From: a bacterium
Lineage (GTDB): Bacteria; 4484-113; JAGGVC01
Direction: 5' to 3'
NCBI GenBank assembly: GCA_039961635.1
Contig: JABRWB010000041.1
Coordinates: 1,448 to 65,447 of the forward strand
Length of the DNA: 64,000 nt
The notes under the pieces: generated by a model
The model's database searches: none
Told to the model about the DNA's origin: nothing
Seen by the model: the letters and a program-made list of their open reading frames with translations, nothing else
Shown here: in pieces, positions 2,914-54,808 of the stretch
Position numbering within the stretch: the stretch's first letter is position 1
Layout: each line of letters starts with the position of its first letter
Position numbers and translations under genes: made by a program

Positions 2914-2931
2914 CTGCGACCGTCCAATCTA

Positions 2932-3771
2932 TTGCTCATGCCCGCACCGCATTTCAATTGGGACGTAATCTGGAACGCGCTGGCGATCCTCGTCTGGCTC
3001 GGCCAGGCGCGCTGGGTGCAGCTCGACGCCGAGCGCAAGTACGGCCGCGGCCGGTTCTGGGGGCTTGTGGCGCTGTGCTTCCCGTTCGCCGGCATCGTAG
3101 CCTACCTGATGTTCCAGCACACTTCGCTTGTCGAAATAGACATGTTCGACGCGGAGATGAGCTGGCAGCTTGCAGACACGGTGCAGGTGAACGGCCGCCG
3201 CCCGGCCCGGCTGACCGCGAAGCGCGGCTTCGGATACCGGCGCCCCGGCCCGTCCGGCCCGACGCGCGCCGACAAGCTCAAGGCGAAGGAGTTGCGGGAG
3301 CGCGCCGAACGGATTGCGCTTACGAATCCACTGCTTGCGAAGGAACTTCGGGAGAACGCCGACCTTTTGGATCCGCCAAAGCCGCCCAAAAAGCCGTGGA
3401 AGGTGCGCTGGAAGGAGTTCTGGCTGCTTCGGCGGGACGCGGCAAGCCTGCGCCGAAGCCGCAAGGCCGAGCGCCGGGAGTGGCTTAAGCGCCCGAAAAA
3501 GCTGCGCACTCACGAGCTGTTCATGAAAAAACTGTCCGAGACGCCGTATGTGGATCCAACGATGGAGGGGCTGCTGTTCGAGGGGCAGTACGAGGTGGCC
3601 CGCGAGCGTGCGACAATCAACCTGCAGATCGCGGAGGAGGAGGGCGATTCGAGGAAGCGCGTGACGTACCGGCGCTACCTTGACCAAATAAGCAAGCTGT
3701 CGAGGATTTACCTGCCGGGCGAGGAGAACCTGAGCACGGACATCGAGAGGTACCATCTGGGGGAGGAGTAG
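2932..3771 (+). CDS. Membrane protein with an N-terminal PLDc_N-like two-helix domain and a long, highly charged (R/K/E-rich) helical C-terminal tail.
   Basis: WNALAILVWLGQARW...GRGRFWGLVALCFPFAGIVAYLMF matches the small TM domain found at the N-terminus of cardiolipin synthases. The rest is low-complexity charged sequence. The opposite-strand ORF 2929..3816 is R/L-rich antisense noise. Confidence 0.6.
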   Translation: MLMPAPHFNWDVIWNALAILVWLGQARWVQLDAERKYGRGRFWGLVALCFPFAGIVAYLMFQHTSLVEIDMFDAEMSWQLADTVQVNGRRPARLTAKRGFGYRRPGPSGPTRADKLKAKELRERAERIALTNPLLAKELRENADLLDPPKPPKKPWKVRWKEFWLLRRDAASLRRSRKAERREWLKRPKKLRTHELFMKKLSETPYVDPTMEGLLFEGQYEVARERATINLQIAEEEGDSRKRVTYRRYLDQISKLSRIYLPGEENLSTDIERYHLGEE

Positions 3772-3798
3772 GGGAATTTCGTGTAAAATAGCGCGGAT

Positions 3799-4623
3799 AT
3801 GAAATCGTACATCCATGTATTCGTAGTTCTCGTTATTGCAATCGTAATCTCATTTGAAGCGGCAGCATGCCAGCCGGTGCCCGGGGGCGCGACGAAAAAG
3901 GAGCTGATAGAGGCGTGCGAGAAGGGGGACTTGGAAAAGGTTAAGTCAATCCTTTCCAAATCTCCCGAACTAGTTAATGCAAAACATGTAAGGCTTGAAG
4001 TGGATGAATCCGGAAAGGACAGAATTACTTTCAATCGTGAGCTCACGCCCCTCATTGCAGCCATAATCGCCGATAAGCAATTTGTAGTTGAATACCTGCT
4101 AAGCAAAGGCGCGGACGCGAATATCACAGTCAGACTTTTATATAACGAGAAGGTAAATGGAAAGCCTCAAAGGGGAGTTGTCCCTGCAGAACAGATAATG
4201 GGACCTCTGCAAGTAGCAGCTTCGAATGGACAAGCAGAAATCTGCATCGTTCTTATTGGCGGTGGTGCCCAAGTAAATGCCGTAATGTCGCCTGAAAAGG
4301 TTTCAGCCCTTCAACTTGCTTTGATGTCCGTGAAAATGCAGGAGTTCAACAAAGAGATTTTTCCGAATTCAGATGGTCTCAAAACCGTTCGCCTTTTGGT
4401 TGACGAAGGAGCGGACTTGAATGTCCGGCAAAGCGAGTCCGGAAATTCTCTACTTCATTCACTAGTTTTAAGTGAGGAAATGGATGCCGCGCTAATCTTG
4501 ATTAAAGGTGGAGCTGATCTGAACGCACGCAACAATGATGGCCTTACTCCATTAGGTATGGCCAAAAAGTACAAGAAAAACAAAATGGCTGCATTCTTAA
4601 AGAAGCATGGGGCGAAAGAGTAG
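3799..4623 (+). CDS. Ankyrin-repeat lipoprotein (signal peptide plus AAAC lipobox, at least 4 ANK repeats).
   Basis: MKSYIHVFVVLVIAIVISFEAAAC signal/lipobox. ANK repeats include TPLIAAIIADKQFVVEYLLSKGADANI and DGLTPLGMAKKYKKNKMAAFLKKHGA. The gene is visibly more AT-rich than its flanks. Confidence 0.8.
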   Translation: MKSYIHVFVVLVIAIVISFEAAACQPVPGGATKKELIEACEKGDLEKVKSILSKSPELVNAKHVRLEVDESGKDRITFNRELTPLIAAIIADKQFVVEYLLSKGADANITVRLLYNEKVNGKPQRGVVPAEQIMGPLQVAASNGQAEICIVLIGGGAQVNAVMSPEKVSALQLALMSVKMQEFNKEIFPNSDGLKTVRLLVDEGADLNVRQSESGNSLLHSLVLSEEMDAALILIKGGADLNARNNDGLTPLGMAKKYKKNKMAAFLKKHGAKE

Positions 4624-4653: not shown

Positions 4654-7263
4654 TTAATTCTCAAACCCCTGCTCCACCCATATCCCCTTCCACGCGTCGG
4701 CTTCCAGTATCTCCGCGATGCTTCCCGGCAGGTCGCAGAAGAACCCGTACTCCTTCCAGACTGTAATGAGATTGTTGGCGTTCGTGCGAGCCGGTGCAGC
4801 GCTCTCAGCCACCTCGGATTCGCCGGATTCCGAAGCTGCGGCACCGGCTGCGATCGAAGCCGCGACATCCCAGTTATAGCTATCCACATCCCCGCCCTCG
4901 TCTATGAACATCGACAGCGACGAACCGCCGTGGTAGTCGTTTCCGCCCGCGCGCGCCTGGCCCGGCGGGTAGTCGTATATATCCCGCCCGCCGCCGTCGC
5001 GGAAGATGCACAGCGAGTTGTGCGCGCTCGCGCCCTGCGAAAAGCCGGTTCCGCCCTCGTAGCGGTCGTCGCCGAACGAATCGTAGAAGTAAGTGACGCA
5101 CTCGTCCCACGCAAGCCCCTGCGCCACGCCCTGCCGCGTCTGGTACAGGTCGTCGCCGCCGTAATTGAGGAACACGCCGACGGCCTGGTGCGCCGAGAAG
5201 CCCTGGTTGTAGCGGCTGCCGACGAAGTGGTCGTTCCCGCCTTCGTCGTAGTAGAATCCGAGGCCGAAGTAGTAGCCACCGCCCTGCGAGAAATTGCCCG
5301 CTTCGCAGTAGTCGTCGCCGCCCAGGTCTATCACTCCAGCGATCCCGCCAGAGGCGTACTGGCGGAAGCCGTCCGCGCAGCCCTGGCTCCAGGAATCGAA
5401 AATGCCGGGGTCGCCGTAGTTCGTGGGGTTCACCCCTTTGGCGTAACGGTAGTCGTCGCCAGCGCCGTCCACGAGAAAGCTGACGGCCTTTGCGCCGGCG
5501 AACGCCTGGGATTTCAGATGCGCTTCGCAGCGGTCGTCGCCGGAGACGTCGTACAGGATGCCGGTGCCGAAAATGCTAGCCGCCTGGCAGAACGCCTGGC
5601 CGCGGTAGCTGTCGTTCCCCGCCGCGTCAACGAGCGCGCCGCAGCCGAAAAAGCCCGTGCCCTGCGCCCAGTTCATCCCGATGTAAGAATCGTCGCCTTC
5701 GAGGTCCACAAGCAGCCCGCAACCGAGGGAGCCGGAGCCCTGCGAATAGGGCAGCGTGGACTCGTAGGCGTCGTCGCCGCCGAAGTCGATCAGGACGCCG
5801 ACGGGGTGCCGGGGCGAGATTCCGCTGCCCGCGGTCGTCGAATAGAAATCGTCGCCGCCGAGGTCGATGACGAGCAGGTCGTGGCGGTACTGCGCCGGGT
5901 CGGTGGGCAGGTTGCGCCAGGTGCGGCCGGTTCCCTGAATGACGATCCATCCGAACGGAGTTTCCTTTTCGTAAAGGACAGGCTGGTCGAGCTTGCCGGC
6001 ATAAATACGCTTCAAGTTCGATTTCAACTCGTCCAGGTAATAGGGCTCCTGGAAAACCAGCAACTTCGCTTGAGCCGCCAAGAGCTTGCTGTATTCGATT
6101 TTTCTGGAAATTGCTATCAGCTTTGCGTTGTCTCGGAACCTGCGCTTGTCAGCATCTTCGTTGATGTAATTGTCCGCCGCAAACGCGTCAGCAAGACCGG
6201 CGCGATGTTCTGCGACAAAGGCTTTTTCCTCGTCGGACAAAGCAGAAAAAGCCTCGGACACTAATTCCGCAGCTTCTTTGAAGCGATTTTCCCAGTATGT
6301 GGTGTAGTTATCAATCGTGATATTGACGGGCATCTGCGCCATCCAGGATGTCGCCGCGTCGTTTTTCAGCATCCAGCTTGCGGTGGAATGTATTCCGTCA
6401 AATCCCCAAATCGTTTTCAAACCGCAGGATTTTAAATCGGCTTCAACAAGTTTTATGCACCTATCCATGGTGAAGCCGTCGCGCAGAATCAGTGAGACCA
6501 GATGGCTCCTGAATCCATCGTCGGGGCTAGCCCGGTTGTTCAGCCGCACAAACAGGTCATCAAATTGGGTTTGAGTGCCTGACGCGCTTGTCAAAATCTG
6601 CGCCAAATATCGAAGGTTGATTTCCGCATCTGTCATTGGATATGGAGAAGTCGTTTCGTTTGCATTTGCGCAGAGCGTATTCCATAGCTGCTCATTAGGC
6701 GGAATCGTCCCCGCGCCGCCTTCCGGGCGAGGGCCGAGGATAACGGTGAATTCAAGCGTGCGCGATTCGTTTATGGCTTCGAGCTTCACGACGTCGCCGG
6801 GCTTTGAGTGCGCGAGGATGTCCGGGTAATCCTCCAGCGGGAATTCGGTCGGGTATTCGACGCCGTTCACCGTAACGATCAGTTGCGGTCCCGGTCGAAA
6901 AACTTTCACGGCGAGCGAATCGCCGACGTGCTTAGATTTAAGCGCGTCCTGAAGCTGCTGGTTGTACGTCGCGACATCCGCGCCGAGTTCCTTTCCGTCG
7001 AGCGCGAGTATCACGTCTCCGGAGCGAAGTCCTGCTTTGTACGCTGGCGAGTCCAATACGGGATCGATCGCAAGTCCCGGCGGATCGGTGGAATTGGACA
7101 TATTGATGCCCATGTAAACGTTGTCCGTGGCGATGGCGGGGCATAGAGCGGATGCTACGACAAGGATGGCCGCAAAAACACAAATTACCGCATGATTTGC
7201 GGCGCATGCGGCGGTCAACAAATGCAAGCACTTTCCCATGGCGCTCTCCCGTGCAGGAATCAC
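4654..7263 (-). CDS. Secreted PDZ-domain protein with a helical middle region and about 12 tandem ~26-aa GGDDxY...QGxG repeats (predicted beta-solenoid).
   Basis: N-terminal signal peptide. PDZ motif GLRSGDVILALDGKELG. Repeat units such as LVIDLGGDDFYSTTAGSG, LIDFGGDDAYESTLPYSQGSGSLGCG, LVDLEGDDSYIGMNWAQGTGFFGCG, FLNYGGDDLYQTRQGVAQG and FYDSFGDDRYEGGTGFSQG. Extreme GC3 bias; the antisense ORF 4645..6264 was rejected. Confidence 0.8.
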   Translation of the reverse strand: MIPARESAMGKCLHLLTAACAANHAVICVFAAILVVASALCPAIATDNVYMGINMSNSTDPPGLAIDPVLDSPAYKAGLRSGDVILALDGKELGADVATYNQQLQDALKSKHVGDSLAVKVFRPGPQLIVTVNGVEYPTEFPLEDYPDILAHSKPGDVVKLEAINESRTLEFTVILGPRPEGGAGTIPPNEQLWNTLCANANETTSPYPMTDAEINLRYLAQILTSASGTQTQFDDLFVRLNNRASPDDGFRSHLVSLILRDGFTMDRCIKLVEADLKSCGLKTIWGFDGIHSTASWMLKNDAATSWMAQMPVNITIDNYTTYWENRFKEAAELVSEAFSALSDEEKAFVAEHRAGLADAFAADNYINEDADKRRFRDNAKLIAISRKIEYSKLLAAQAKLLVFQEPYYLDELKSNLKRIYAGKLDQPVLYEKETPFGWIVIQGTGRTWRNLPTDPAQYRHDLLVIDLGGDDFYSTTAGSGISPRHPVGVLIDFGGDDAYESTLPYSQGSGSLGCGLLVDLEGDDSYIGMNWAQGTGFFGCGALVDAAGNDSYRGQAFCQAASIFGTGILYDVSGDDRCEAHLKSQAFAGAKAVSFLVDGAGDDYRYAKGVNPTNYGDPGIFDSWSQGCADGFRQYASGGIAGVIDLGGDDYCEAGNFSQGGGYYFGLGFYYDEGGNDHFVGSRYNQGFSAHQAVGVFLNYGGDDLYQTRQGVAQGLAWDECVTYFYDSFGDDRYEGGTGFSQGASAHNSLCIFRDGGGRDIYDYPPGQARAGGNDYHGGSSLSMFIDEGGDVDSYNWDVAASIAAGAAASESGESEVAESAAPARTNANNLITVWKEYGFFCDLPGSIAEILEADAWKGIWVEQGFEN

Positions 7264-7347: not shown

Positions 7348-8604
7348 ATGGAGAGGATGTCCGCCAAGCCTTCATCCGAGCTTGCCGCGCACGGCGGCGA
7401 ACCATTTTGCCGGGAGCTTATCCCGCTTTATCGGCGCGCATACGATCCGGTGGAGCTTGCCGCGCTGGAGGAATGCCTGCGCTCCGGGTGGGTCACGCGC
7501 GGCCCGAAAACCGTCGAATTCGAGAGGGCGTTTGCATATTATCTCGCAAGAGGAACGAAGAACGGAGAGTCGGCGGGAAATTCCCGCGGTTTGTTTGCGC
7601 TTGGGCTGAACTCCTGCACCGCGGCGCTGCATACCGCGTTGCATTGCGAAGGGATCGGCCCTGACGACGAGGTAATCACGACGCCGATGACGTTTGCCGC
7701 GACGGTCAACGTAATCGAGCATGTCGGCGCGACGCCCGTGCTTGTGGATATTCATCCGGATACGCTGTGTATTGACGAGGAAAAAATCGAACGGGCGATT
7801 ACGAATCGGACGAAAGCGATAATTCCCGTGCATTACGCGGGGCATCCATGCGAGCTTGACGCGATATCGGATATCGCGGAGCGGCATGGTCTTACGGTTA
7901 TCGAGGACTGCGCGCATGCGGTTGAGGCGGAATACCGCGGCAGAAAAATGGGCGGATTTTCGCCGTACTCATGCTTCAGCTTTTACGCGAACAAGAATCT
8001 CTCGACAGGGGAGGGGGGGATGCTTGTCTGCCGCGACGAAGAAACGAAAGCCAGGGCGATGGTCGTCTCGCTCCACGGGATGAGCCGAAACGCGTGGCAA
8101 AGGTACGAAGGTAGCCGGTTCGAATTGTACGATATCGAGCGCGCGGGATTCAAATACAACATATTCGACCTGCAGGCGGCGCTTGGGCTGGTGCAGCTTG
8201 GCAAGCTCGATGAAAACTGGAAAAAGCGTCTCAGGCTGTATGAGCGATATTGCTCGCTGCTCGCGGATGTGCCGGGAATCGAGCCGCTTCAGGTGCGGGA
8301 TCATGTAAAGAGCGCGCATCACATATTTCCCTGCCTTCTGGATTTGGACAAAATTACGGTCGGCCGCGACGAATTTCTTTCGTTACTGCTGGCTGAAAAC
8401 GTCCAGGGATATGTCCATTTCCGCCCGATATTCGAATTCAGATATTACAAGGACAAATACGGCTGGCGGGCAGAAGATTGGCCTGTCGCGGCAGACGCTG
8501 GCATGCGCGTTTTGTCGCTGCCGTTCTATCCGTCGATGACTGACGAAGAGATGGATTCGGTCGTCGGCGCAGTGCGCAAGGTTCTTGCGGCGGTATCTAT
8601 ATAG
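7348..8604 (+). CDS. DegT/DnrJ/EryC1/StrS-family PLP-dependent aminotransferase (aminosugar biosynthesis type).
   Basis: LEECLRSGWVTRGPKTVEFERAF...VIEDCAHAVEAEY...SFYANKNLSTGEGG, which includes the PLP-lysine motif. An alternative ATG at 7357 sits directly after a TATAAT (7344-7349), so a leaderless start is possible. Confidence 0.85.
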   Translation: MERMSAKPSSELAAHGGEPFCRELIPLYRRAYDPVELAALEECLRSGWVTRGPKTVEFERAFAYYLARGTKNGESAGNSRGLFALGLNSCTAALHTALHCEGIGPDDEVITTPMTFAATVNVIEHVGATPVLVDIHPDTLCIDEEKIERAITNRTKAIIPVHYAGHPCELDAISDIAERHGLTVIEDCAHAVEAEYRGRKMGGFSPYSCFSFYANKNLSTGEGGMLVCRDEETKARAMVVSLHGMSRNAWQRYEGSRFELYDIERAGFKYNIFDLQAALGLVQLGKLDENWKKRLRLYERYCSLLADVPGIEPLQVRDHVKSAHHIFPCLLDLDKITVGRDEFLSLLLAENVQGYVHFRPIFEFRYYKDKYGWRAEDWPVAADAGMRVLSLPFYPSMTDEEMDSVVGAVRKVLAAVSI

Positions 8605-8710: not shown

Positions 8711-9289
8711 GTGATTGCCGGGCTGGGCAATCCAGGCGAGCGGTACAAGGCCACGCGGCATAACCTTGGATTCATGGTGGTGGACGCGTTAGCTGAGCGG
8801 TGGAAGGCGGGAAATAAACACCAGCGATGTCAAGGCGAGGTGCGCGAGGCGCGGATCGAGGGCAAGGCTGTGCTGCTCGTCAAACCGATGACGTTTATGA
8901 ACGGAAGCGGGCTGTGCGTCGGCCCGCTGATGAGACGGAACAAAGGCGCATCTCTGATTGTGGTTTTCGATGATGTGAACCTTCCGCTGGGCAAAATGCG
9001 GCTGCGGGCCGACGGCAGCGCGGGCGGGCACAAAGGCGCTGAGAGCGTTATCCGCCACTACAAGAGCGCATTTTACCGCGTAAGGTTGGGCATAGGCGGC
9101 GGCGAATTGGAATACCTTTCGGATTGGGTTTTGGAGCCGTTCGAGCCGGAGGAAATGCCAACTGTGCTTGCCATGGTGGCCGCGGCTGTTGTCAAAATCG
9201 AGGAGATTGTTACGAAAGGTTGGGAATATGCTGTAACAGCCGGAAACACGGTTAATTACGTCAAAGGTACTGTGGAGAGTCAGTTATGA
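8711..9289 (+). CDS. pth: Peptidyl-tRNA hydrolase.
   Basis: VIAGLGNPGERYKATRHNLGFMVVD...KPMTFMNGSGLCVGP...VVFDDVNLPLGKMRLRADGSAGGHKG are the canonical Pth motifs. A GTG at 8711 gives the typical x-LIVGLGNPG N-terminus. The in-frame ORF opens at 8585 and an alternative GTG lies at 8672. A TTGTATAAT -10-like element is at 8657-8665. Confidence 0.75.
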   Translation: MIAGLGNPGERYKATRHNLGFMVVDALAERWKAGNKHQRCQGEVREARIEGKAVLLVKPMTFMNGSGLCVGPLMRRNKGASLIVVFDDVNLPLGKMRLRADGSAGGHKGAESVIRHYKSAFYRVRLGIGGGELEYLSDWVLEPFEPEEMPTVLAMVAAAVVKIEEIVTKGWEYAVTAGNTVNYVKGTVESQL

Positions 9290-9783
9290 ATGACCTGTTC
9301 TATCTTGCTGATTTGCTCGAGCAAAGGCATATTATCGAAAAGTCGATTTCAGACATCATACGCGGTCCGGCATACAAGGTTAACGTAGCCGAATATTTGG
9401 CGATTAGGGTTTTCGATATCCAGGCCGCGGGCCGCGGCCACCCCGGGGGCATGGAAGGCTGGTTTGCTTCAGGCCCGCTTTCAGGCCGATCCGTAAAAGT
9501 AAAGGCTTTCGCGCGCAACGAATATTACCTCGATATTCCGGCGGCCCACGCGCCCGAATATTACCTTGTGTTCATACACGGAGGCGCGCTGCTGGTGAGT
9601 ACTTTATATTTAATCAACATTGGGAATTTGCTGAAGGATTTGCAAAAGCGCGGCGCCCTGATTGGAGGTGCGACGAATTTGCCGCGCAGCTTCTGGGACG
9701 ATTCCGAGTTGTTTCCAAGGCAGATAAGCCGCGAGCTTATCCTGTCGCCGGAACAACATCATATGCTTTCGATTTTTGCATAG
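9286..9783 (+). CDS. Hypothetical protein (165 aa) of unknown function, translationally coupled to pth by an ATGA overlap.
   Basis: Codon usage matches its neighbours. Its start overlaps the pth stop. No motif recognised. Confidence 0.55.
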   Translation: MNDLFYLADLLEQRHIIEKSISDIIRGPAYKVNVAEYLAIRVFDIQAAGRGHPGGMEGWFASGPLSGRSVKVKAFARNEYYLDIPAAHAPEYYLVFIHGGALLVSTLYLINIGNLLKDLQKRGALIGGATNLPRSFWDDSELFPRQISRELILSPEQHHMLSIFA

Positions 9784-9786
9784 GGG

Positions 9787-10725
9787 GTGATGCCAGTGGC
9801 TATCAGCGTTTTAAGCGTTTCTCTCGGAAGCTCCAAGCGGGACAAAAAAGTTTCCACGGCGCTTTTAGGAGAACAGGTCATTATTGAAAGGCGCGGCACC
9901 GATGGCGATATTAACGCCGCCATCCGGCTGATCCGCGAAATGGACGGAAAGGTGGACGCGATCGGTCTCGGCGGGATTGATCTTTACTTATGGGTCGGAG
10001 ACCGCAAATACGTCGTCAGAGATGCGCTTAAAATGGCGCAGGCGGCCAGGAAATCGCCTGTTGTGGACGGCAGCGGTCTAAAAAACACGCTTGAGCGGCG
10101 CACCGTAGAGTGGCTGGCGCAAAAGTTCGAGGGTACTCCAAAACTTTCGGATTCGCGGGCGATGATGACTAGCGGCATAGACCGCACGGGAATGGCGCAA
10201 TCGTTATGGAAATACTGCAGAAGCGTCGTTTTCGGCGATCTTGCATTCGCCTTGGGAATCGGGATACCCATTCGTAGTCTGAAAACGTTGTTCTTCCTTG
10301 GCAGCGTGCTGCTGCCCATTGTCACGCGCCTGCCGTTCACATGGATTTATCCGACGGGCGAAAAGCAGGAGAAACAAACTCCGAAGTATCCAAAGTTGTT
10401 CGAGAGCGCCGACTGGATATGCGGCGACTTTCATTACATAAAGCGGTACGCGCCGTCAAATTTGAACGGCAAGGTGATTCTTACAAACACGACAACAGAA
10501 GAAGACGTGACAATGCTCGCAGGCCGGGGCGTGAGATGGCTTGTTACGACAACTCCCGTTTTCGAGGGCCGGAGCTTTGGAACCAATCTTCTGGAAGCGT
10601 GCATCGTCGCGTTGATCAAGCGCTCGCACAGCGAGGGATATTTGCCGACATTAGCCGATTACGAAGCGTATTTGAACAAGCTGGAAATCACACCATCGGT
10701 TCGCGCATTGGATAAGGCAAATTAA
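9787..10725 (+). CDS. Hypothetical protein (312 aa), possibly Rossmann-like and distantly AroM-like; unknown function.
   Basis: Begins 4 nt after the previous gene. The N-terminus PVAISVLSVSLGSS...DAIGLGGIDLY has a beta-alpha-beta character. No confident family assignment. Confidence 0.55.
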   Translation: MMPVAISVLSVSLGSSKRDKKVSTALLGEQVIIERRGTDGDINAAIRLIREMDGKVDAIGLGGIDLYLWVGDRKYVVRDALKMAQAARKSPVVDGSGLKNTLERRTVEWLAQKFEGTPKLSDSRAMMTSGIDRTGMAQSLWKYCRSVVFGDLAFALGIGIPIRSLKTLFFLGSVLLPIVTRLPFTWIYPTGEKQEKQTPKYPKLFESADWICGDFHYIKRYAPSNLNGKVILTNTTTEEDVTMLAGRGVRWLVTTTPVFEGRSFGTNLLEACIVALIKRSHSEGYLPTLADYEAYLNKLEITPSVRALDKAN

Positions 10726-12223: not shown

Positions 12224-13408
12224 GTGCCCACCTACAGGTACGAAGCCCGCGATATGGACGGCCGGTCAAGCTCCGGCACCATTGAAGCGGAATCGCAGGA
12301 CGCCGCTGTTGGCAGGCTGCTTGACGGCGGACTTTTCGTCCACCGGATTAGGGAATCTGCAGGCCAAATCTACCATTCCGAAGGTGGAACCTCGACCTTC
12401 AGCTACGGCCAAGGCTGTTTAAGCGCGATTGCCGGAAGCATCATCCCTTTCGTGACGCTGGGCGAGCTTGCGCTTGTGACAAGGGAACTGGCATCGGGCG
12501 TAGGAGCAGGATTGAACCTCGCGCATGCCATTTCGGCCGTCCTGGAAGGCTCGCTTTCCCCGATGATGCAAGGCGCTCTGCGCGACATTTCGACACGAAT
12601 CCAGTCGGGTGACACATTCGAGGAAGCTCTGGCCAGGCATCCGCGCATCTTCAACAAGATGTACAGAGGAATGATCAAGGCGGCGGAAGGAAGCGGTACG
12701 CTCGATATCGTGCTGGCCAACCTCGCTCAGTTTCTGGAGGAAGAAGTCGACCTTCGGCGGCGCGTGCAGGGCGCGCTGATTTATCCATCCATTGTGTTCG
12801 TAGTCGCGCTTGGTGCGGCATTCATCCTGGCGTGGTTGGGTTATTTCGGCATGAGCCTGTTCAGCGTGATGGTTGCAGCCGCGGTTGCAGTCGTCGCAAT
12901 TTGGCTGCTCGGCAAGAACCGTCACGTGGCTGCAATGTTCCGGCTGGTACTCTCGGTAACTCCGGGAATTGGCGGAATGATCGCGACGGCGGGTGTGGCG
13001 CGCACGTGCCTCGCCCTCGGGACTATGATCAAAAGCGGGGTACCATACCTTGAAGCGCTGGATATGGCAAAAGACGCGGCGAACCATCACGGCATAGAGC
13101 AGGCGCTTTCGGTCGTTTACAGCGAAGTCAGCCGTGGCGAGCAGCTTTCAACCAGCCTTGCCAAAAGCAGGATTTTCCCAAGCGTTCTTCGCCACCTGGT
13201 GGCCGCGGGGGAGCATGCGGGCAGTGTTGACGATATGCTGTTCAAGGTTTACCAGTACTTGCAGGGCGAACTTCAATACAGGACAAGGGCGATGCTTACT
13301 ATGATCGGCCCCTTGTTCACAATCCTGTTCGGCGCGCTCGTGCTATACATCGCGCTGATGTTTTGGTCGGGGTATTTTGAAAAAATCATGTCGGCGGCGG
13401 GATCGTGA
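12224..13408 (+). CDS. gspF: Type II secretion / type IV pilus inner-membrane platform protein (GspF/PilC family).
   Basis: N-terminus MPTYRYEARDMDGRSSSGTIEAESQDAAVGRLLDGGLFV plus two GspF-type domains with TM segments. No GspE/PilB ATPase is adjacent. Confidence 0.8.
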   Translation: MPTYRYEARDMDGRSSSGTIEAESQDAAVGRLLDGGLFVHRIRESAGQIYHSEGGTSTFSYGQGCLSAIAGSIIPFVTLGELALVTRELASGVGAGLNLAHAISAVLEGSLSPMMQGALRDISTRIQSGDTFEEALARHPRIFNKMYRGMIKAAEGSGTLDIVLANLAQFLEEEVDLRRRVQGALIYPSIVFVVALGAAFILAWLGYFGMSLFSVMVAAAVAVVAIWLLGKNRHVAAMFRLVLSVTPGIGGMIATAGVARTCLALGTMIKSGVPYLEALDMAKDAANHHGIEQALSVVYSEVSRGEQLSTSLAKSRIFPSVLRHLVAAGEHAGSVDDMLFKVYQYLQGELQYRTRAMLTMIGPLFTILFGALVLYIALMFWSGYFEKIMSAAGS

Positions 13409-14160
13409 AACGAAGCCTCGACGCGGTTGAACATTTTGCGGTGGATTTAGTCCGGCTTCAGGCGGGATGGGCAATCACCACGCTCGTGCTTGCCATCCAG
13501 GTTGTGGCTGTCGTGTTTTTCTCGGCTGCAGCGCCCGAAATTAAAACGCTTGATCAACAGGCGGCTTGGGAATCGGAGGTTCTTCGCTGGTTGTTGATTC
13601 CGGGAATTGTTTGCCTCTATCTCAAAGCTTGCCTGTATCTGTGGCGTTCGACCGCCCCAAAAGGAAATGCCTTGCACGCCCAATCGGTGCCGCGGACTTA
13701 CTCTCAAGCCGCAGGTGCGACGATTGTCGTGCTTTCGATTGACAATGCAATACTTTTGCTCGTTCCATTGGCCTTCGGCTTTGGAGATTACCTGTCGGTT
13801 TTGGAGAGAGGCGTGCAGATTTTTGCATTCGTTTCTTCCGGTACTGCGGTTGCAGGTTTGCTGTTCATCAAATTAGCACCGCGCCAGCCCCTTTTCGCGC
13901 CGATTTATTTCGCCTGGATGCTTTTGTTGGAATATGCGCAGGTCTGGCTTTCCCGCGAACATCCGGAATTGCCTTTGTTCAACGATTTGTTCGCTTGGAA
14001 TCGAATTTTTCCAAGTTTGGCGACGCAGACGACGACGTTGAAGCTCGACTCATTTCAGATCTACGAGCTTCTGTTTGCTTCCGCCATAACGGTCGCGGTC
14101 GCACTGGCTTTGATTACGGCGGTTCACGGAAAAATAAAAAGTGCAGCTAGCGGTTCCTGA
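13405..14160 (+). CDS. Polytopic membrane protein (about 7 TM), unknown function, translationally coupled to gspF.
   Basis: ATGA overlap with the gspF stop. Hydrophobic helices throughout. Contains SIDN...GFGDY. Confidence 0.6.
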   Translation: MKRSLDAVEHFAVDLVRLQAGWAITTLVLAIQVVAVVFFSAAAPEIKTLDQQAAWESEVLRWLLIPGIVCLYLKACLYLWRSTAPKGNALHAQSVPRTYSQAAGATIVVLSIDNAILLLVPLAFGFGDYLSVLERGVQIFAFVSSGTAVAGLLFIKLAPRQPLFAPIYFAWMLLLEYAQVWLSREHPELPLFNDLFAWNRIFPSLATQTTTLKLDSFQIYELLFASAITVAVALALITAVHGKIKSAASGS

Positions 14161-16446: not shown

Positions 16447-17514
16447 TTACCCGCCAAAATGGCGATAGGCAACGCTGCTTGCGGAGACAAGCTCATCCGC
16501 AAGTTCGTCATCCCTATGGAAAATGTCAAGGAATTCCTGAAGGAACTGTGCCTCAAATTCACCGAGTGCAATGAGCACCACTCCATCGGTTGTTTTCACC
16601 GCATACACCATCGGCCGCTTATCATGTTTATCCTGAAGCAGCTTTGCCAGTTCGGAATTTTTGGTTTGAAAAACGCTTACGACAAGGGAAGGGTCGTCTC
16701 CCGTGAAAATCATCTGGAATACTAGATTGTGCTTGAGGTTGTGAGGAATAAGTTCCTCAAAAGCGAATCCCTCAGGAATTTTGGTGAATTCAGGCACCAG
16801 GGGTCTCCACGCGTTTGCCGCGGAAATCGCTCCGTCGTGCCTGAAGCTGGGCAAGGGTGACTTGTTTTCGAATCCATACGGTATATCGAAAAGCGAGTTG
16901 TCGATATCCGCGACATGGATGAATTTCAAATCGTCAAGCACTTCAAAGGTCAGCAGCTTGCGATTATCCACCAACAATTCCAGCTTTAGCGGAAAGCCGC
17001 TGTCGGCGGATATCCAGACTTTGCGCACCATTCGTCCGGGAATGGCGACTATCCAAGTCCTTTTGCTGCCGTATTTCCCTTCGGACACGGTTGCATTTTC
17101 AAGCAATGCTGCCTGTCGGCCGCCGATGTTTATCCATTCCTGAATTCCGCCCCAGCCGCGTGGATCGTTGACCGCGATTTTTCTGCTCCTGTCCACAAGA
17201 TATCTGCGGTCTTCGACGCGGATGAAGTAAATATCTACGTCCTTCAAATCGCCTTCGGCATCCCTTACCTGGGGCTGTATTAGAGACTTGCCTGGGACGT
17301 GGATAATTCGCTGAAATACTTCCTTTGTGCCGCGCGAGCCCCTGGATTTTACAATTCGAATCGTGCAGGAATAGGCGCTACTTTCAAGTGTGTGGCGTAC
17401 TTTGGAAAGCAGCTCTTCCGCTGTTGGATTCTTAGCCGCGACAGGCGCAGTGGCCGAAAAGATAAACATTAAGCTCGCGGCCAAGGATGCGGCTTTTGGC
17501 GAAAGCAATTTCAT
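16447..17514 (-). CDS. Periplasmic RseB/MucB-like (LolA-fold) protein. It is the third gene of the ECF sigma operon.
   Basis: Signal peptide MKLLSPKAASLAASLMFIFSATAPVAA. About 355 aa. Sits immediately downstream of the sigma/anti-sigma pair with overlapping stop and start. Confidence 0.5.
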   Translation of the reverse strand: MKLLSPKAASLAASLMFIFSATAPVAAKNPTAEELLSKVRHTLESSAYSCTIRIVKSRGSRGTKEVFQRIIHVPGKSLIQPQVRDAEGDLKDVDIYFIRVEDRRYLVDRSRKIAVNDPRGWGGIQEWINIGGRQAALLENATVSEGKYGSKRTWIVAIPGRMVRKVWISADSGFPLKLELLVDNRKLLTFEVLDDLKFIHVADIDNSLFDIPYGFENKSPLPSFRHDGAISAANAWRPLVPEFTKIPEGFAFEELIPHNLKHNLVFQMIFTGDDPSLVVSVFQTKNSELAKLLQDKHDKRPMVYAVKTTDGVVLIALGEFEAQFLQEFLDIFHRDDELADELVSASSVAYRHFGG

Positions 17515-24571: not shown

Positions 24572-26815
24572 CTACTTAAAGTAGTGGCATTCCCGGCAGG
24601 ATTTATCCGGATAATGCGCCTCGTCCTTGTCGGCATGGCACATTTGGCAGTTTTGCCTCGGCACCTCCCGCCAGGCGTGGTTTGCGTGGCAGGTCATACA
24701 GCTTTGATGACCATCGCGAACGTGCAGCCCCTTGGATGTCATATCCGCATGGCAAGACGCGCAGCTTTCGGGATCCGCCTTCCACTCGTGTGTCGCATGG
24801 CACATTGCACAGTTGTTTTTGATGCTCTCCTCGTTTGCCTGAAGCTTGTCCGCGTGGCACATCGTGCAAGATGGCATTTCAGTCTTGCTGAATGAGTGGG
24901 CTGCGTGGCACATCGTGCACGTCGTCATTTTCGATTTCAAGTTGGTTTCCGCAATGTCCGCATGACAAGTCGCACAGGCTACTTCCGGCTTGGGCGTCCA
25001 GTTGTGGTCAGCATGGCAGAAAGAGCAGGATACATGCGGCCCGGAGGAAGTTTCATCCGCTTTATCCGCATGGCAGCTAGCGCAATCCAGCGTCCGAGTC
25101 CAGGTATGAGGGATGTGGCACAGCGCGCAGTTTGCTTTGAATTGACCTGAAGAGGCGTTGCCGTTATCCACCTGCGATGGATGGCAGGTCTTGCAGGCTC
25201 CCGGCGGTTCGGGAGACCAGTTGTGCCCCGCGTGGCACATTGCACACTCGGGCATTCCAGCCGTGGCAGTGTCGGTTCCGATGTCTGCGTGGCAGGACAG
25301 ACACAAAATAGGCTCGGGTTTCCACAGGTGATCGGAATGACAAAGCGCGCAATCCGCCTTTACGTTGTTCAGCGACGCCAGACCGGAATCGCGCACGTCA
25401 GGATGACATTGGCCGCAGAACTTGCTGTTCCGGAGAGTGTGAACCGCGGCCATCTGGAATTCGTTCAGCTTCAGAGCTTTGTCGGCCTTTTGCTTCGCTA
25501 CTTCCGCTTCGGAGATTTCTAAGATTTGAGCAAGTTCCGCGTCCGTTGCCGCGGGAAGATTGGGCTTCCAGGTGTGTGGATTGTGGCAGAGGCTGCAATC
25601 CGCTTTGGCGGGCAGTTCTTTGGAATTGGCGACCGGGCTGTGATGGCAAGCGGCGCAAGACTGCCAGCCCTTGAAGCTGCCTTCGTGGGTGTTGTGGCAA
25701 ATGGCGCAGTTTTGCATTTTGCCTTTGAGCACTTCCTTGACAACTGGAGCATGGCAGCTGCGGCAAGTTGAGGATCCTCTGGGCGCTTTCCACGTGTGGT
25801 TCTGGTGGCATGACAAACATTGCTTATGTTTGGAAGGAATGCTGGAAGCGGGCACCGCGCCCGGATAAATGGCTCTTGAGTGGCATTCGAGGCATTTGGA
25901 TGGAGCTGCAACCTTCCAGTCGGAAATCGCGTGGCAGCTAAGGCAATCTTTGTGCTTCGCCGGTGCCGATGCGGGAGCGAAACGCTCCTTCCAGCCCGGT
26001 TCGTGGCAGCTTGCACAAGTACCGGTTTTGAAATTGCCCAGATAATGTGGGCTATGACATTGGATGCAGTTCTTGGGGTGGAATGGGAAGTTGTGTTCAA
26101 GCACTTCCGTTGTTTGGGTATGGCACTGCGTGCAAAACTCGGCGTTTCCGACGTTGGTCCAGGAATGGGGCTTGTGGCACTGAACGCAGGATTGATGTCC
26201 CGGATTGGAAGTCTGGCCCGGCTTATAAACCGCATGGCAGTTCAGGCAGGTAGAAGACGTAATCTCGTAACTTTCGTCGTGTGGATTGTGGCAACTCTTG
26301 CAGGATATTGCCATCGCAGCATCGGGGGAAAAGAAATCCTTGTTAATTTCAGTCTGCAGTGGTTCGGCGTGGCATATCTGGCAGTCGTTGAATTCGGGAA
26401 CAAGCTCCATTCCCGTTTTTTGGACTTTGAAAACGTGACAAGCCCAACAATGGTTTTTTGCCTGTTCGCTGGTGAAATGGCCTTCAGCGTGGCATTCGAG
26501 GCATTTTTTGGGATCGGGCAGCTCCAGGAAGTTGTCGGTGTTGTGGCACGTTGCGCATTCCATCCGCTCTTTGAGTACGTGGGAGCCGTGGCCGGGCGTG
26601 TTGGGAAGGGATTTCCACAGGTCTGCGGAAATTCCGGCAGGAGGTGTTTCGGAAAATTCGGAGACGGGCACTTTGGCGGCGTTGTGCTTGTCCTGACCGC
26701 CACACGTGGTCAATATCAAGATAGCCGGCAGAAGAAAAAAAAGACGCAAATCTGCGCTCGATTTGAGCGAGATTTGCGACCAAAAACGAAGCTTGGTTGG
26801 CGACGGCAGGGTCAT
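24572..26815 (-). CDS. Multiheme cytochrome c with 33 CxxCH motifs (747 aa), signal peptide or lipoprotein.
   Basis: 33 CxxCH motifs counted by eye, CATCH first and CRECH last. Spacing is regular at 10-22 aa. A 55-aa helical linker follows heme 17. The C-terminal half has an alternating 12/14-aa repeat CxxCHADHNW...CxxCHAD. Confidence 0.9.
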   Translation of the reverse strand: MTLPSPTKLRFWSQISLKSSADLRLFFLLPAILILTTCGGQDKHNAAKVPVSEFSETPPAGISADLWKSLPNTPGHGSHVLKERMECATCHNTDNFLELPDPKKCLECHAEGHFTSEQAKNHCWACHVFKVQKTGMELVPEFNDCQICHAEPLQTEINKDFFSPDAAMAISCKSCHNPHDESYEITSSTCLNCHAVYKPGQTSNPGHQSCVQCHKPHSWTNVGNAEFCTQCHTQTTEVLEHNFPFHPKNCIQCHSPHYLGNFKTGTCASCHEPGWKERFAPASAPAKHKDCLSCHAISDWKVAAPSKCLECHSRAIYPGAVPASSIPSKHKQCLSCHQNHTWKAPRGSSTCRSCHAPVVKEVLKGKMQNCAICHNTHEGSFKGWQSCAACHHSPVANSKELPAKADCSLCHNPHTWKPNLPAATDAELAQILEISEAEVAKQKADKALKLNEFQMAAVHTLRNSKFCGQCHPDVRDSGLASLNNVKADCALCHSDHLWKPEPILCLSCHADIGTDTATAGMPECAMCHAGHNWSPEPPGACKTCHPSQVDNGNASSGQFKANCALCHIPHTWTRTLDCASCHADKADETSSGPHVSCSFCHADHNWTPKPEVACATCHADIAETNLKSKMTTCTMCHAAHSFSKTEMPSCTMCHADKLQANEESIKNNCAMCHATHEWKADPESCASCHADMTSKGLHVRDGHQSCMTCHANHAWREVPRQNCQMCHADKDEAHYPDKSCRECHYFK

Positions 26816-41669: not shown

Positions 41670-41714
41670 CGGTTGCAATTTCAGCCCGCAAAGGAACCCT
41701 TCGGCAAGGGGAAA

Positions 41715-50500: not shown

Positions 50501-51325
50501 CGAAAGAAAGTCATTCATTGCGCCGGTTTTTTCCGTATCCATTGACAGAAATTCAGACAGCAGCTTTACATCGTTGTAAATTGCCTCGCGCCATGCTGCC
50601 GGTATCGCCGACTTTCTGAATTCCGTTTCGAACCATTCAAGTTCGCGCCTGATTTTCTCTATTTCCGCTGTTAAAGCATCTTTGTAAAGCTTACCCCAAG
50701 TCGTGTGCCAAAAACTTTCCGCTGACTTTACTTCATCGTAGAGGCCAAGCCAATATTTGCTTCTGGCTCTCGGCTGGGGCAGTTTTTCGAAAAAATCCGC
50801 CAAATCAAGCACCAAAGTATGCAGCCATTCATCGCCCCTGCCTGTGCCGAATGACCTCAACAACTGCGCATAGCGCTTTTGTCCAGCTTTGCTACTGGCC
50901 ATTTCGGCGATTGTCTTGCCAATAGCGATTTCTTTTAAATTGCGTGACTTATCCTCATCTAGAATTGCAAAGTCCGCGGGAAGAGACAACGGTCCTGCGA
51001 ATTCCCGTATAAGCTGCAAACAAAAAGAATGTATCGTACCAACAGGCGCTTGGGTGATTCTAGGGATCAAAAGCTCCAAATTGCGATCGTTCGATTCAAC
51101 GAGCCTGTTTATTACGCCAATCTTGAGTTGAGACGCTGCTTTTCTGGTGAAAGTAATTGCCAGAATCCGCTCCGGTGCGTTTCCTTCAATTAGCAGTTTT
51201 AAATATCGCTGAATAAGAACGCTAGTTTTTCCCGCTCCAGCAGCAGCGCTTACAAGTATCCGGCGATCGACGGCCTCGATCGCTTTGCGCTGACTCATTG
51301 TCCAGTTCACCGGGCCATTTTTCAT
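47510..51325 (-). CDS. addA: AddA/RecB-type helicase-nuclease (UvrD-like helicase plus C-terminal PD-(D/E)xK nuclease).
   Basis: ILVSAAAGAGKTSVLIQRYLKLL (Walker A)...DEYQDTSPIQ...VDLIFECDRRRILVDWKTD (nuclease motif). Confidence 0.85.
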   Translation of the reverse strand: MKNGPVNWTMSQRKAIEAVDRRILVSAAAGAGKTSVLIQRYLKLLIEGNAPERILAITFTRKAASQLKIGVINRLVESNDRNLELLIPRITQAPVGTIHSFCLQLIREFAGPLSLPADFAILDEDKSRNLKEIAIGKTIAEMASSKAGQKRYAQLLRSFGTGRGDEWLHTLVLDLADFFEKLPQPRARSKYWLGLYDEVKSAESFWHTTWGKLYKDALTAEIEKIRRELEWFETEFRKSAIPAAWREAIYNDVKLLSEFLSMDTEKTGAMNDFLSGASWTPRYPAKCNIYELDRTKESWVKFRNRIKSDFRKTWLVPELIILSELKKFSSSQILPELIDLVYKYTECFSKIKLRLKMLDFSDLERYAHTLLAETAASNKHVAEVLADRFDHILIDEYQDTSPIQDAIFECLSQRAKMFFMVGDVKQSIYRFRHAEPDLFVNRLNLIRKGKDESSSLIDLPDNFRSVKPVIDVVNAVFSRIFSENFGGIDYCDGHKLISGAGNELSQCASGCVTPHVSLKLILSSGTRVDDKEVENDDFDTENAGGDFEETDLSRKELEASLVAREILSLVNSVPAIKVIEENDGQKRPVPISFRHVALILSAPVNWVDTYAEVFGRYGIPFWFSAGGSAQLMSDPLSRDLLSILRVIDNPLQDIPLSAVLLGPLVGLTPDYLLAIRSSMEHCELLFDAVVSSVTSKGYNQVLTVLSEALGESAPSEELMRFATEERLKIERFLEWLTEMRQTAQSDELSEVVLKTIRDSNLDSLARLGYGTADSSSRLEWFAGISESMPPGGLGDLIKKASAEDKIELPTSAVGDRVQITSIHQAKGLEFPIVIAAGLGHKFRFDESKRAVIFDREIGFGCRLLHPNRHATYPSPPYRIVERALRHKMLEEEARKLYVSLTRARERLIMVGSVRESAFKVSYAARRTAKNECIRERDEACNFMDWLMPIFIEAKPVYAALESIGVQIGGIAPQGLDADLSCDVFRESELKAAIGKETLPNLALKTELGMDVTPLNEAELKIPDAVLFKYPFSSTISIPRKISASSLSKYDDPEGLRMIAESFEPRDASRNSHNLRNDSLRLGSAVHILMSNLPFGCGVGINPEETLAELVSLGKIAESDASNIEMNRIHSFLETPLGRFLSGKGFARTEWRFLLRLNREDFASEPRALRALTALANPNMPQSSAISPSIVMLNDDDFVVAQGAVDLIFECDRRRILVDWKTDAVDMAEVNGRAENYFLQMWVYIKAVEAGLGPVDSAKLVFLTPGVAVEVT

Positions 51326-54678: not shown

Positions 54679-54808
54679 ATTTATGCCGCTTCGTTGCCGC
54701 GGAATAAGGATTATACAAGCCCCGGTCGGGTACAATCTGCACGTGCCGGCAATCAACGATTCAGGGAAACCTCCGGGCAGCTTTCCGCCGCCTTCCCGGT
54801 TTCACAAA

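Follow-up and report, generated by a model that had tools for sequence, protein, structure and literature searches.

In the canonical RTX beta-roll (PF00353, HemolysinCabind), as in Pseudomonas alkaline protease, stacked Asp residues need bridging Ca2+ and folding follows export; without Ca2+, carboxylates stacked 4.8 Å apart destabilise the fold (PMC6891781). Region IV (RIV) of the Marinomonas primoryensis ice-binding adhesin MpIBP (PDB 3p4g) is a non-canonical, one-sided Ca2+ beta-roll, a continuous roll of 12 coils in which every coil supplies one Ca2+ turn, X-G-T-G-N-D, followed by X-U-X-U, with Ca2+ on one edge only (PMC6891781). Right-handed parallel beta-helices are extracytoplasmic folds with three short strands in each coil of 22 to 28 aa and loops beside conserved polar residues. 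Periplasmic proteases of the HtrA/DegP/DegS and Ctp/Prc types join PDZ domains to a protease domain (S1C or S41). The protein analysed here, encoded in a window of 64,000 nt (the whole stretch of DNA analysed), shares features with each of these systems, and its solenoid defines a large, multi-phylum family that is unnamed and missing from Pfam, NCBIfam and solved structures.

The gene lies on the minus strand, as do all features of the protein given below. According to the ORF list and translation, the ORF has 869 codons at 4654 to 7263, with GTG at 7263 as the first codon. Translation probably starts at Met9 (ATG 7237 to 7239), because an SD-like box, GGGAGAG, sits 5 nt upstream of ATG 7239 and the N-termini of homologs line up there. 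From Met9 to the stop at 4654 to 4656, the coding sequence (4654 to 7239) would specify 861 aa, as against the 869 aa given in an earlier note on this DNA. No second copy of the gene was found within the window. Reading from the N-terminus, the Sec signal peptide is followed by PDZ and helical domains, a beta-hairpin that probably caps the solenoid, the 12 coils, a linker and finally a small C-terminal domain.

The Sec-type signal peptide (aa 9 to 45, MGKCLHLL...ALCPAIA; 7129 to 7239) aligned with the K/R-hydrophobic-AxA signals of 17 homologs, with predicted cleavage after A-I-A (CPAIA|TD), in agreement with the secreted protein that had been proposed. Export signals were present in 246 of the 294 full-length family members. 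The single PDZ domain proposed earlier was also recovered (aa 48 to 178; 6730 to 7122), matching Pfam PDZ_2 (PF13180) at aa 50 to 132 with an E-value of 9.6e-11 (42.3 bits, cutoff 27) and PDZ_6 (PF17820) with an E-value of 6e-8 (32.7 bits, cutoff 27), and the top NCBIfam, PDB and Foldseek matches were PDZ domains of HtrA, DegP and CtpB. Its carboxylate-binding loop is present (YMGI, aa 50 to 53), the hydrophobic-Gly-hydrophobic column Y-[LIM]-G-[IVL] is conserved, and Gly52 is at least 90% conserved among 20 homologs. PDZ type, intact loop and export are thus shared with the HtrA and Ctp proteases; unlike these, however, the protein has no peptidase Pfam domain, and NCBIfam HtrA/Ctp models aligned over the PDZ part only, at 10 to 30 bits against cutoffs of 150 to 800.

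The PDZ domain is followed by an all-helical domain (aa 186 to 424; 5992 to 6708). In the AlphaFold2 (AF2) model, DSSP placed helices at model residues 182 to 412, mostly with pLDDT of 88 to 98 and with low-confidence loops near model residues 190 to 200 and 290 to 300. At about 240 aa the helical region is shorter than the 300 aa or so given in the earlier note. Two motifs, DL..RL......DD..RL..V.Y..RD and AF..LS.EE..FL, recur in family members that lack the PDZ domain. Across the family the helical domain is poorly conserved. Its profile matched no PDB sequence (best E-value 0.04) and it had no Pfam match. Next comes a beta-hairpin and loop (aa 425 to 460; 5884 to 5991) with a conserved T..G..h.G.G motif and strands at model residues 421 to 427 and 430 to 435; standing ahead of the solenoid, the hairpin is probably its N-terminal cap. 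Beyond the solenoid, an Ala/Ser/Glu-rich low-complexity linker (aa 801 to 830; 4774 to 4863) is shared only with the two nearest relatives, P0002 and P0003, and is probably disordered, given the AF2 pLDDT of 54 to 58. The small C-terminal domain (aa 831 to 869, NLITVWKEYGFFCDLPGS...AW..IW; 4657 to 4773) was modelled as a beta-hairpin and a helix (strands at model residues 824 to 836, helix at 841 to 853, pLDDT 87 to 95). This domain, which has a conserved GW.EHGFF.DLPGSL motif, is specific to the PDZ clade and was found in 38 of 206 family proteins.

The solenoid itself (aa 461 to 800; 4864 to 5883) comprises 12 repeat units starting at aa 464, 490, 517, 544, 569, 596, 644, 670, 697, 725, 753 and 785, with a period of 25 to 28 aa except for a 48-aa coil 6, which carries an insertion, and a 32-aa unit 11. 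This bears out the dozen or so imperfect repeats of about 26 aa recognised in the sequence beforehand. Each coil follows one plan, beta1 (x-G-h-h-h-D), a turn (x-x-G-[D/N]-D), beta2 (x-Y-x), a loop, Q-G, beta3 and a corner, with the consensus h-h-h-D-x-x-G-x-D-x-Y...Q-G. The motif D..G.D.[YFHC] occurred 9 times, compared with a mean of 0.09 to 0.15 and a maximum of 3 to 4 in 20,000 shuffled sequences, and the excess persisted when the Gly/Asp-rich region alone was shuffled. The alternation of hydrophobic with Gly/Asp positions is strictly periodic, and 48 residues of the solenoid are acidic compared with 14 basic. Across 195 proteins, D6, G9, D11 and Y13 of the repeat were at least 90% conserved in most coils, and G9 and D11 at least 97% in coils 1 to 11. 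AF2 folded the coils into a regular beta-solenoid with coil pLDDT of 97 to 98 in the full-length model (overall pLDDT 90.1, pTM 0.90), and modelling the domain alone gave 88.4 and 0.89; these models drew on shallow alignments of 59 and 22 sequences, and AlphaFold readily builds solenoids from repeats. DSSP of the model assigned each 26 to 28-aa coil a beta1 of 6 aa, a beta2 of 3 to 4 aa, and a beta3 of 3 aa. Because the model is a solenoid, its single G-x-D turn per coil is stacked along the length of the predicted domain. The beta-solenoid suggested by the earlier note, which had named AlphaFold as a check and predicted disorder as the outcome that would count against it, thus emerged as a confident prediction, and the fold and the family are well supported.

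To place the solenoid, Pfam, NCBIfam, PDB sequences and structures were searched. Pfam returned no match for it among 123 family members (59 and 64), and NCBIfam gave nothing beyond PDZ. The solenoid-domain profile matched no PDB sequence at E ≤ 10, the single-coil profile gave chance-level matches only (E ≥ 0.59) that included no repeat protein, and searches of PDB sequences with the full protein and the family profile retrieved only PDZ domains, plus HEAT repeats owing to other family members. Foldseek of the repeat region, which had also been proposed as a check, yielded non-significant, generic beta-helix matches only. By HMM, the repeat is neither an RTX nonapeptide nor an FG-GAP or bactofilin repeat, as had been surmised, and VCBS and other named Gly/Asp repeats gave no match either. 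The view that it has no name stands, the match to an existing Pfam family that would have overturned it not having been found. The literature yielded no account of a family that joins a solenoid of this kind to PDZ or HEAT, and the combination is not listed in a 2019 survey of microbial PDZ architectures.

Whole-length matches to the solenoid were found in 4,346 representatives of 50%-identity clusters from many diderm phyla. The domain is encoded by species-representative genomes of many phyla, at least 575 in number, and the habitats of the family include anammox reactors, groundwater and marine sediment. An ortholog is present in the cultured bacterium Amphritea balenae JAMM 1525. Family proteins are mostly exported, and those sampled are annotated "hypothetical protein". 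The module always aligned as a single end-to-end stretch, and because it does so in thousands of proteins, the alignments indicate a fixed 12-coil module of about 340 aa and not a free, variable tandem-repeat array. By Pfam, only PDZ, HEAT/Arm and, rarely, TPR domains are fused to it in family members, all of them protein-binding. Many members lack PDZ, some carry C-terminal HEAT repeats in its place, and the commonest form has neither. Judged from these architectures, the PDZ domain is an optional accessory and the helical domain and solenoid form the conserved core, which must have a function of its own because the commonest form lacks both PDZ and HEAT.

Conservation within the solenoid points to a specific site. 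Coil 6 is 48 aa long, as opposed to 26 to 28 aa for other coils, owing to an insertion of about 21 aa (segment aa 605 to 640, YRYAKGVNPTNYGDPGIFDSWSQGCADGFRQYASGG; 5344 to 5451) that is retained in the family consensus and that bears Q627, conserved in 100% of 195 solenoid domains, and R634. Arg634 (5362 to 5364, codon verified) is coil-specific, His692 (5188 to 5190) occupies the corner after beta3 of coil 8, three residues ahead of the next beta1, and Asp720 (5104 to 5106, codon verified) lies in the corner of coil 9; each is 99% conserved in 195 proteins from many phyla. His692, Asp720 and His748 share the same corner position in successive coils. From the repeat register we deduce that Arg634, His692 and Asp720 probably cluster in space, and the handedness of the solenoid and the facing of its Asp ladder are likewise deduced from the register. 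The set suggests a candidate binding or catalytic site. It is unlikely to serve just interdomain packing, because the helical domain is poorly conserved, while the near-invariant polar residues could alternatively be structural, for example by binding a metal or by forming a hydrogen-bond network in the interior. A Ser-His-Asp protease triad in the solenoid was considered and dropped, no Ser being invariant across the family.

Our preferred reading, to which we give an even chance of being right, is of an exported beta-helix of the cell envelope, stabilised by Ca2+, with a specific Arg/His/Asp site and optional targeting by PDZ. The protein would be periplasmic or envelope-located, with a conserved core made up of the helical domain and then the fixed 12-coil solenoid. 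In each coil, a single acidic turn of six residues, D-x-x-G-[D/N]-D, would lead into a Tyr that points inward, a combination equivalent to the latter half (G-x-D-x-U) of the RTX nonapeptide. Stacked along one edge of the solenoid, these turns would most probably bind a line of Ca2+ ions that offsets the charge of the carboxylates. Folding of the domain would then have to await export, as it does in MpIBP RIV, a one-sided beta-roll. The insertion in coil 6 and the corners of coils 8 to 10 would display Arg634, His692 and Asp720 on a rigid platform, forming a ligand-binding or catalytic site that may act on an envelope glycan or protein; both the role of the site and its substrate are putative. 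The HtrA-type PDZ domain would link the core to a partner protein, in all likelihood by way of a C-terminal tail, and in other members a C-terminal HEAT array may take over this targeting role.

Calcium binding by the turns is predicted by analogy with RTX and MpIBP. Like MpIBP RIV, the solenoid is extracytoplasmic and continuous over 12 coils, with one six-residue turn per coil ending in G-[N/D]-D and an x-U-x stretch after it that places a hydrophobic residue inward. However, the MpIBP coil has 19 aa and two strands, whereas the coil described here has 26 to 28 aa and three. MpIBP also forms part of a T1SS adhesin of 1.5 MDa; the protein described here, about 860 aa long, is Sec-exported and has PDZ and helical domains. 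Among all solved structures 3p4g gave the highest TM-score, in a match that was not significant (TM 0.35 to 0.36 by query and 0.43 to 0.45 by target, rmsd 8.6 to 8.9 Å, E-value 2 to 6, probability 0.1 to 0.2). With canonical RTX rolls the solenoid shares the G-x-D-x-U turn and strand signature, and its stacked Asp residues are likened to theirs. As neither the single-coil nor the whole-domain profile detected MpIBP, the coil profile retrieved no RTX protein from the PDB and HemolysinCabind gave no Pfam match at E ≤ 1, the resemblance of the turns is a motif-level analogy only.

An alternative that we consider unlikely is the scaffold or protease adaptor proposed in the earlier note, in which the solenoid is a rigid spacer or docking surface with no specific small site and the PDZ or HEAT domains recruit a periplasmic protease or its substrates. 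The HtrA/Ctp type of the PDZ domain, the exclusively protein-binding fusion partners, and the lack of a catalytic domain or metabolic operon context all fit such a role. Yet neither PDZ nor HEAT is present in the commonest family form, and no protease gene was a conserved neighbour at 76 family loci or in a Pfam scan of 70 adjacent genes. The 99% conservation of the coil-specific Arg634, His692 and Asp720 in 195 proteins from many phyla would be unusual for a spacer and speaks against a passive scaffold.

It is rather improbable that the solenoid is a strongly diverged, pectate-lyase-like right-handed beta-helix that processes a polysaccharide of the envelope or the extracellular space as a lyase, hydrolase, esterase or C5-epimerase, with catalytic Arg/His/Asp and Ca2+ as cofactor. 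Carbohydrate enzymes with a beta-helix fold typically use Arg/His/Asp/Tyr chemistry, in line with the conserved Arg/His/Asp set, and the three strands per 26 to 28-aa coil and the elaborated loop beside conserved polar residues also speak for this reading. The non-significant Foldseek list is likewise one of right-handed beta-helices, comprising pectate lyases, PL6 alginate lyases, pectin methylesterases, binding regions of serine-rich-repeat adhesins, and TPS/FHA domains, but with TM-scores of 0.14 to 0.30 and E ≥ 0.95. No member of the Pfam Beta_helix clan (NosD, Pectate_lyase_3, Pectate_lyase and others) matched any of the 123 family proteins, and pectate-lyase-like families lack the invariant D..G.D.Y turn that the solenoid repeats in each coil. 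Moreover, family genes were never set in polysaccharide gene clusters (76 loci, 70 adjacent genes), and carbohydrate-active enzymes are not usually fused to PDZ or HEAT.

We regard as very unlikely a surface adhesin or an ice- or mineral-binding protein that uses a flat, Ca2+-decorated solenoid face in the manner of MpIBP RIV: the best TM-score and the single acidic turn per coil favour it, but the family spans many phyla and habitats, copy number and length are fixed whereas adhesins expand, anchoring and autotransporter domains are lacking, and the conserved residues are a local set and not a repetitive binding face. A canonical RTX protein (a toxin, adhesin or enzyme that binds Ca2+ and leaves the cell by type I secretion) is extremely improbable and membership of that family is refuted, since the acidity of the domain and the likeness of its G-x-D-x-[aromatic] turn to the second half of GGxGxDxUx are set against a period of 26 to 28 aa with no GG-x-G first half and no 9 or 18-aa periodicity, the missing HemolysinCabind and single-coil matches, an N-terminal Sec signal in place of a C-terminal T1SS signal, and no T1SS genes next to the gene or at the relatives' loci examined. 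Equally remote is a prediction artefact, in which AlphaFold, known to over-regularise repeats and here given shallow alignments, forced a Gly/Asp-rich low-complexity or disordered region into a solenoid, as 195 sequences from many phyla preserve the length and register of the module at each position, the hydrophobic and Gly/Asp periodicity is strict, pLDDT reaches 97 to 98 with pTM 0.9, and disordered regions do not keep particular Arg, His and Asp residues 99% identical.

An unlikely but far-reaching extension of our preferred reading, the exported envelope beta-helix, is that the helical-domain and solenoid core represents a new, widespread class of exported envelope enzyme in diderms, a Ca2+-laddered beta-helix with an undescribed Arg-His-Asp type of active site, which PDZ or HEAT domains guide to protein substrates or partners in some lineages. 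If so, the envelope of Planctomycetota, anammox bacteria, Desulfobacterota, Bdellovibrionota, phyla of the FCB group and some Proteobacteria would be maintained with the help of a component so far overlooked. Whether enzyme or receptor, such a core would bear on the envelope biology of poorly studied Planctomycetota, anammox bacteria and candidate phyla, and even a mere rigid spacer would give protein designers a new and useful solenoid scaffold. A domain definition would annotate thousands of proteins now called "hypothetical protein" or "PDZ/HEAT domain-containing protein", and the near-invariant Arg/His/Asp set offers experimenters a precise target. Next to the RTX and MpIBP architectures, the solenoid would also stand as a third among probable Ca2+-dependent beta-rolls, with coils of 26 to 28 aa that each have three strands and a single acidic turn.

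No catalytic domain, operon partner or named homolog in the family lends independent support to an enzymatic role. Clustering the ORFs of 80 genome loci revealed no conserved operon partner, and of the 86 Pfam families detected in 70 adjacent same-strand genes, none was present in more than 5. A role in anti-phage defence or on mobile elements was rejected, as PADLOC models matched 0 families at E ≤ 0.1 and no relatives were found on plasmids or phages. The best non-self neighbour cluster, at 8 of 76 loci, was confined to the Brocadia clade. The DegT aminotransferase gene that the earlier note had placed downstream, and whose co-occurrence elsewhere it had suggested checking, lies at 7348 to 8604 on the plus strand and is in fact transcribed divergently from the minus-strand solenoid-protein gene. 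It was a neighbour, again divergent, only in the closest relative examined, and was absent around P0013, P0036 and P0027, so the link was dropped. On its 3' side, the solenoid-protein gene is flanked by a convergent ankyrin-repeat gene (3799 to 4623, plus strand).

The solenoid gene, an 869-codon ORF in the window's ORF listing at 4654-7263, lies on the minus strand rather than the plus strand, and its product belongs to a large, multi-phylum, exported and entirely unannotated protein family. Its longest reading opens at GTG 7263. Because an SD-like box, GGGAGAG, stands 5 nt ahead of ATG 7239 (Met9) and 17 homologs have N-termini that align at that residue, we take Met9 as the true start, which would give a product of 861 aa. 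The public JGI call for the identical protein P0001 starts at Met51 (819 aa; window 7111-7263, minus strand, involved), and therefore lacks the signal peptide. The N-terminus, MGKCLHLL...ALCPAIA/TD, aligned with the K/R-hydrophobic-AxA signals of homologs and is a Sec-type signal, in keeping with the secretion first proposed. The GC content of the gene is 59.1% versus 52.0% for the whole window, a difference that probably stems from the codons (GGN, GAY, and GCN) in which the Gly/Asp/Ala-rich solenoid abounds; the same excess may alternatively reflect horizontal acquisition.

Pfam detected a single PDZ domain (PDZ_2, E 9.6e-11, aa 50-132), as expected from the earlier note, and NCBIfam and PDB sequence searches recovered HtrA/DegP/Ctp proteases through their PDZ portions only, at scores far under the family cutoffs. 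A full-length AlphaFold2 (AF2) model built from a 59-sequence alignment (mean pLDDT 90.1, pTM 0.90) comprised an N-terminal signal helix, a PDZ fold (residues 45-167 in model numbering, i.e., ORF numbering minus 8), an all-helical domain (182-412), a β-hairpin (421-435), a regular β-solenoid (454-780, block pLDDT mostly 95-98), a linker modeled with low confidence, and a small C-terminal domain of a hairpin and a helix. Modeling the solenoid alone (22 sequences) gave the same fold (pLDDT 88.4, pTM 0.89), so that the β-solenoid suspected at the outset is predicted by two models. The linker that joins the solenoid to the C-terminal domain, 30 residues rich in Ala, Ser, and Glu (aa 801-830; window 4774-4863, minus strand), was found only in the window protein and in P0002 and P0003, the two relatives nearest to it, where it is longer still.

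The repeat is genuine, and the original estimate of about 12 copies was accurate. Twelve units start at aa 464, 490, 517, 544, 569, 596, 644, 670, 697, 725, 753, and 785, with a period of 25 to 28 aa except for a 48-aa unit bearing an insertion and the 32-aa unit 11. The motif D..G.D.[YFHC] occurs nine times in the protein, where 20,000 shuffles gave an expectation of 0.09 to 0.15 and a maximum of 3 to 4, and the excess persisted when shuffling was confined to the Gly/Asp-rich region. According to DSSP, each coil of the solenoid model has three strands: β1 (x-G-h-h-h-D) leads through a five-residue turn (x-x-G-[D/N]-D) into β2 (x-Y-x), followed by a loop ending in Q-G, the three-residue β3, and a three-residue corner. 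Eight of the protein's 16 Cys residues fall within the solenoid (aa 461-800); several are kept in the PDZ clade, e.g., C629 and the G-C-G that opens coils 3 and 4, and, given export, could form disulfides stapling neighboring coils.

An initial search returned 59 relatives, 14 of them full-length (46 to 55% identity). These came from MAGs labeled Planctomycetota or "bacterium" and were named, where at all, "PDZ domain-containing protein" or "hypothetical protein"; others had the solenoid alone in common and carried HEAT repeats. Of the 59, 54 aligned with a local HMM of the repeat region over its full length (positions 2-339). Searching 1.84 billion cluster representatives exhaustively with A3, a profile of the solenoid only, gave 4,346 matches at E ≤ 1e-3, 3,834 at E ≤ 1e-10, and 2,517 at E ≤ 1e-30. 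Among the 150 matches listed, nearly all were one stretch over the whole module, in proteins of 370 to 1,198 aa, and the solenoid is therefore a fixed 12-coil domain, not an array that can expand, which revises the tandem-repeat description given previously. The best 120 profile matches, mostly minimal proteins of 620 to 670 aa and including Zixibacteria, Calditrichaeota, and Ignavibacteria, had no precomputed Pfam domain and, if named, were "hypothetical protein."

In a census of 206 collected members, about 82 combined PDZ, helical domain, and solenoid, some of them also having the C-terminal domain, and about 27 had the helical domain and solenoid; in the remainder, the N-terminal ~270 aa had diverged but retained helical-domain motifs (D.FRL..V..L...P), with C-terminal HEAT/Arm repeats in 29 of 64 such proteins scanned. 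The pairing of PDZ and solenoid emphasized earlier thus holds for this protein, but the PDZ is accessory and missing from many members. A signal peptide or lipobox was present in 246 of 294 full-length members. Scanning species-representative genomes recovered at least 575 loci in Planctomycetota (including Brocadia and Kuenenia), Phycisphaerae, Desulfobacterota, Bdellovibrionota, Verrucomicrobia, Lentisphaerota, Gamma-, Alpha-, and Betaproteobacteria (including the isolate Amphritea balenae), Nitrospirae, Nitrospinota, Latescibacterota, WOR-3, Gemmatimonadetes, Spirochaetia, and Eisenbacteria, while a search of plasmids and phages found no relatives.

The repeat proved as nameless as initially supposed. 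Across 123 members scanned, no Pfam family covered the solenoid, and its profile matched no PDB sequence even at E ≤ 10. A 27-column single-coil profile, which sums weak repeated matches, retrieved no RTX or other repeat protein, and a helical-domain profile search gave no match. Foldseek against the PDB matched only the PDZ of the full model. For the solenoid model it listed generic β-helices (SRRP adhesins, FHA/TPS domains, tapirin, tailspikes, PL6 lyase, and pectin methylesterase) with a best E of 0.95; the top TM-scores in that list (0.36/0.45) belonged to region IV of the Marinomonas ice-binding adhesin MpIBP (3p4g), a Ca2+-dependent antifreeze β-helix. The fold class is already known and the family itself is without annotation; we have high confidence in the fold and in the family.

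To distinguish scaffold from coil-specific residues, 195 solenoid domains were aligned to the HMM. The Asp ending β1, the turn Gly and second Asp, and the β2 Tyr were 90 to 100% conserved in nearly every coil, and the Q-G ahead of β3 was also common. Two near-invariant Asp per coil are stacked over 11 to 12 coils, in a solenoid with 48 acidic and 14 basic residues. Given these stacked pairs, the charge, and export to a compartment with Ca2+, we propose with moderate confidence a one-sided Ca2+ ladder along the solenoid, which would make folding Ca2+-dependent once the protein is exported. In RTX proteins, Ca2+ bridges aspartates stacked 4.8 Å apart, and without it carboxylate repulsion destabilizes the fold; in MpIBP region IV, twelve 19-aa coils form a continuous roll, and each coil has one Ca2+-binding turn (X-G-T-G-N-D, then X-U-X-U), on a single edge (PMC6891781). 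The latter is a precedent for one acidic turn per coil, and the second half of the RTX nonapeptide GGxGxDxUx matches the G-x-D-x-Y of the solenoid coils, although the proposed ladder is an analogy of motif and architecture, not demonstrated homology.

Arg634, which lies in the coil-6 insertion, His692, and Asp720 stood out among coil-specific residues with 99% conservation each; Asn749 was 89% conserved, while Tyr664 (98%) and Tyr685 (97%) look like core residues by register. His692, Asp720, and, in the PDZ clade, His748 each lie three residues ahead of the next β1, and therefore occupy the same corner in coils 8, 9, and 10. Such residues might be kept merely for interdomain packing, which is unlikely because the helical domain itself is poorly conserved (mean column identity 33%, just three near-invariant columns). 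Instead, we read the Arg634/His692/Asp720 set as a candidate for a specific binding or catalytic site, with low confidence in any particular biochemical function. PDZ and HEAT, both protein-binding modules, are interchangeable at opposite ends of the core, and their most plausible role is to target or tether it.

The gene is solitary in the window. On its 3′ side, a convergent ankyrin-repeat gene (3799-4623, plus strand, 274 aa, Ank_2 E 4e-19) ends 30 bp away, with no terminator-like hairpin in the gap by simple scan. The DegT aminotransferase gene on the 5′ side, once suggested as a co-occurring partner, is divergent and was retained only beside the closest relative examined, being absent beside relatives P0013, P0036, and P0027, and is irrelevant. 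ORF clustering across 76 loci found no neighbor common to more than eight, those eight being one clade, and 70 adjacent co-directional genes fell into 86 Pfam families with a maximum recurrence of five; hence, operon context gives no inference of function. In the anammox (Brocadia/Kuenenia) clade, a ~316-aa gene lies directly downstream on the same strand at eight loci, and a separate ~315-aa cluster takes the same position in five Desulfobacterota loci (conserved downstream genes occur at L045, L049, L050, L058, L062, L066, L076, and relatives); both might be lineage-specific partners. Radical SAM proteins were the commonest immediate neighbor (5 of 70 adjacent genes, loci L007-L086) and VanZ-like proteins appeared three times, counts too few for an association.

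Elsewhere in the window, several sizeable putative ORFs (165 to 560 aa) had no Pfam match at E ≤ 1e-3 or 1e-5: 54656-56338, 9787-10725, 9286-9783, and 13405-14160 on the plus strand, and 16447-17514 and 2929-3816 on the minus strand. LptC-like and LptA/LptD_N-like domains are combined in a 762-aa protein (41673-43961, plus strand) that far exceeds the length of LptC and LptA, usually separate proteins, and may form a fused periplasmic bridge for LPS transport. A 747-aa multihaem cytochrome (24572-26815, minus strand) has cytochrome c7/c3 modules together with an MtrC/MtrF-like domain II/IV, which suggests that this Planctomycetota-like genome encodes the ability to carry out extracellular electron transfer. 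At 47510-54756 (minus strand) lies an ordinary AddAB recombination pair whose stop and start codons overlap: an AddA-like UvrD helicase (1271 aa) and an AddB-like PD-(D/E)XK nuclease (1144 aa).
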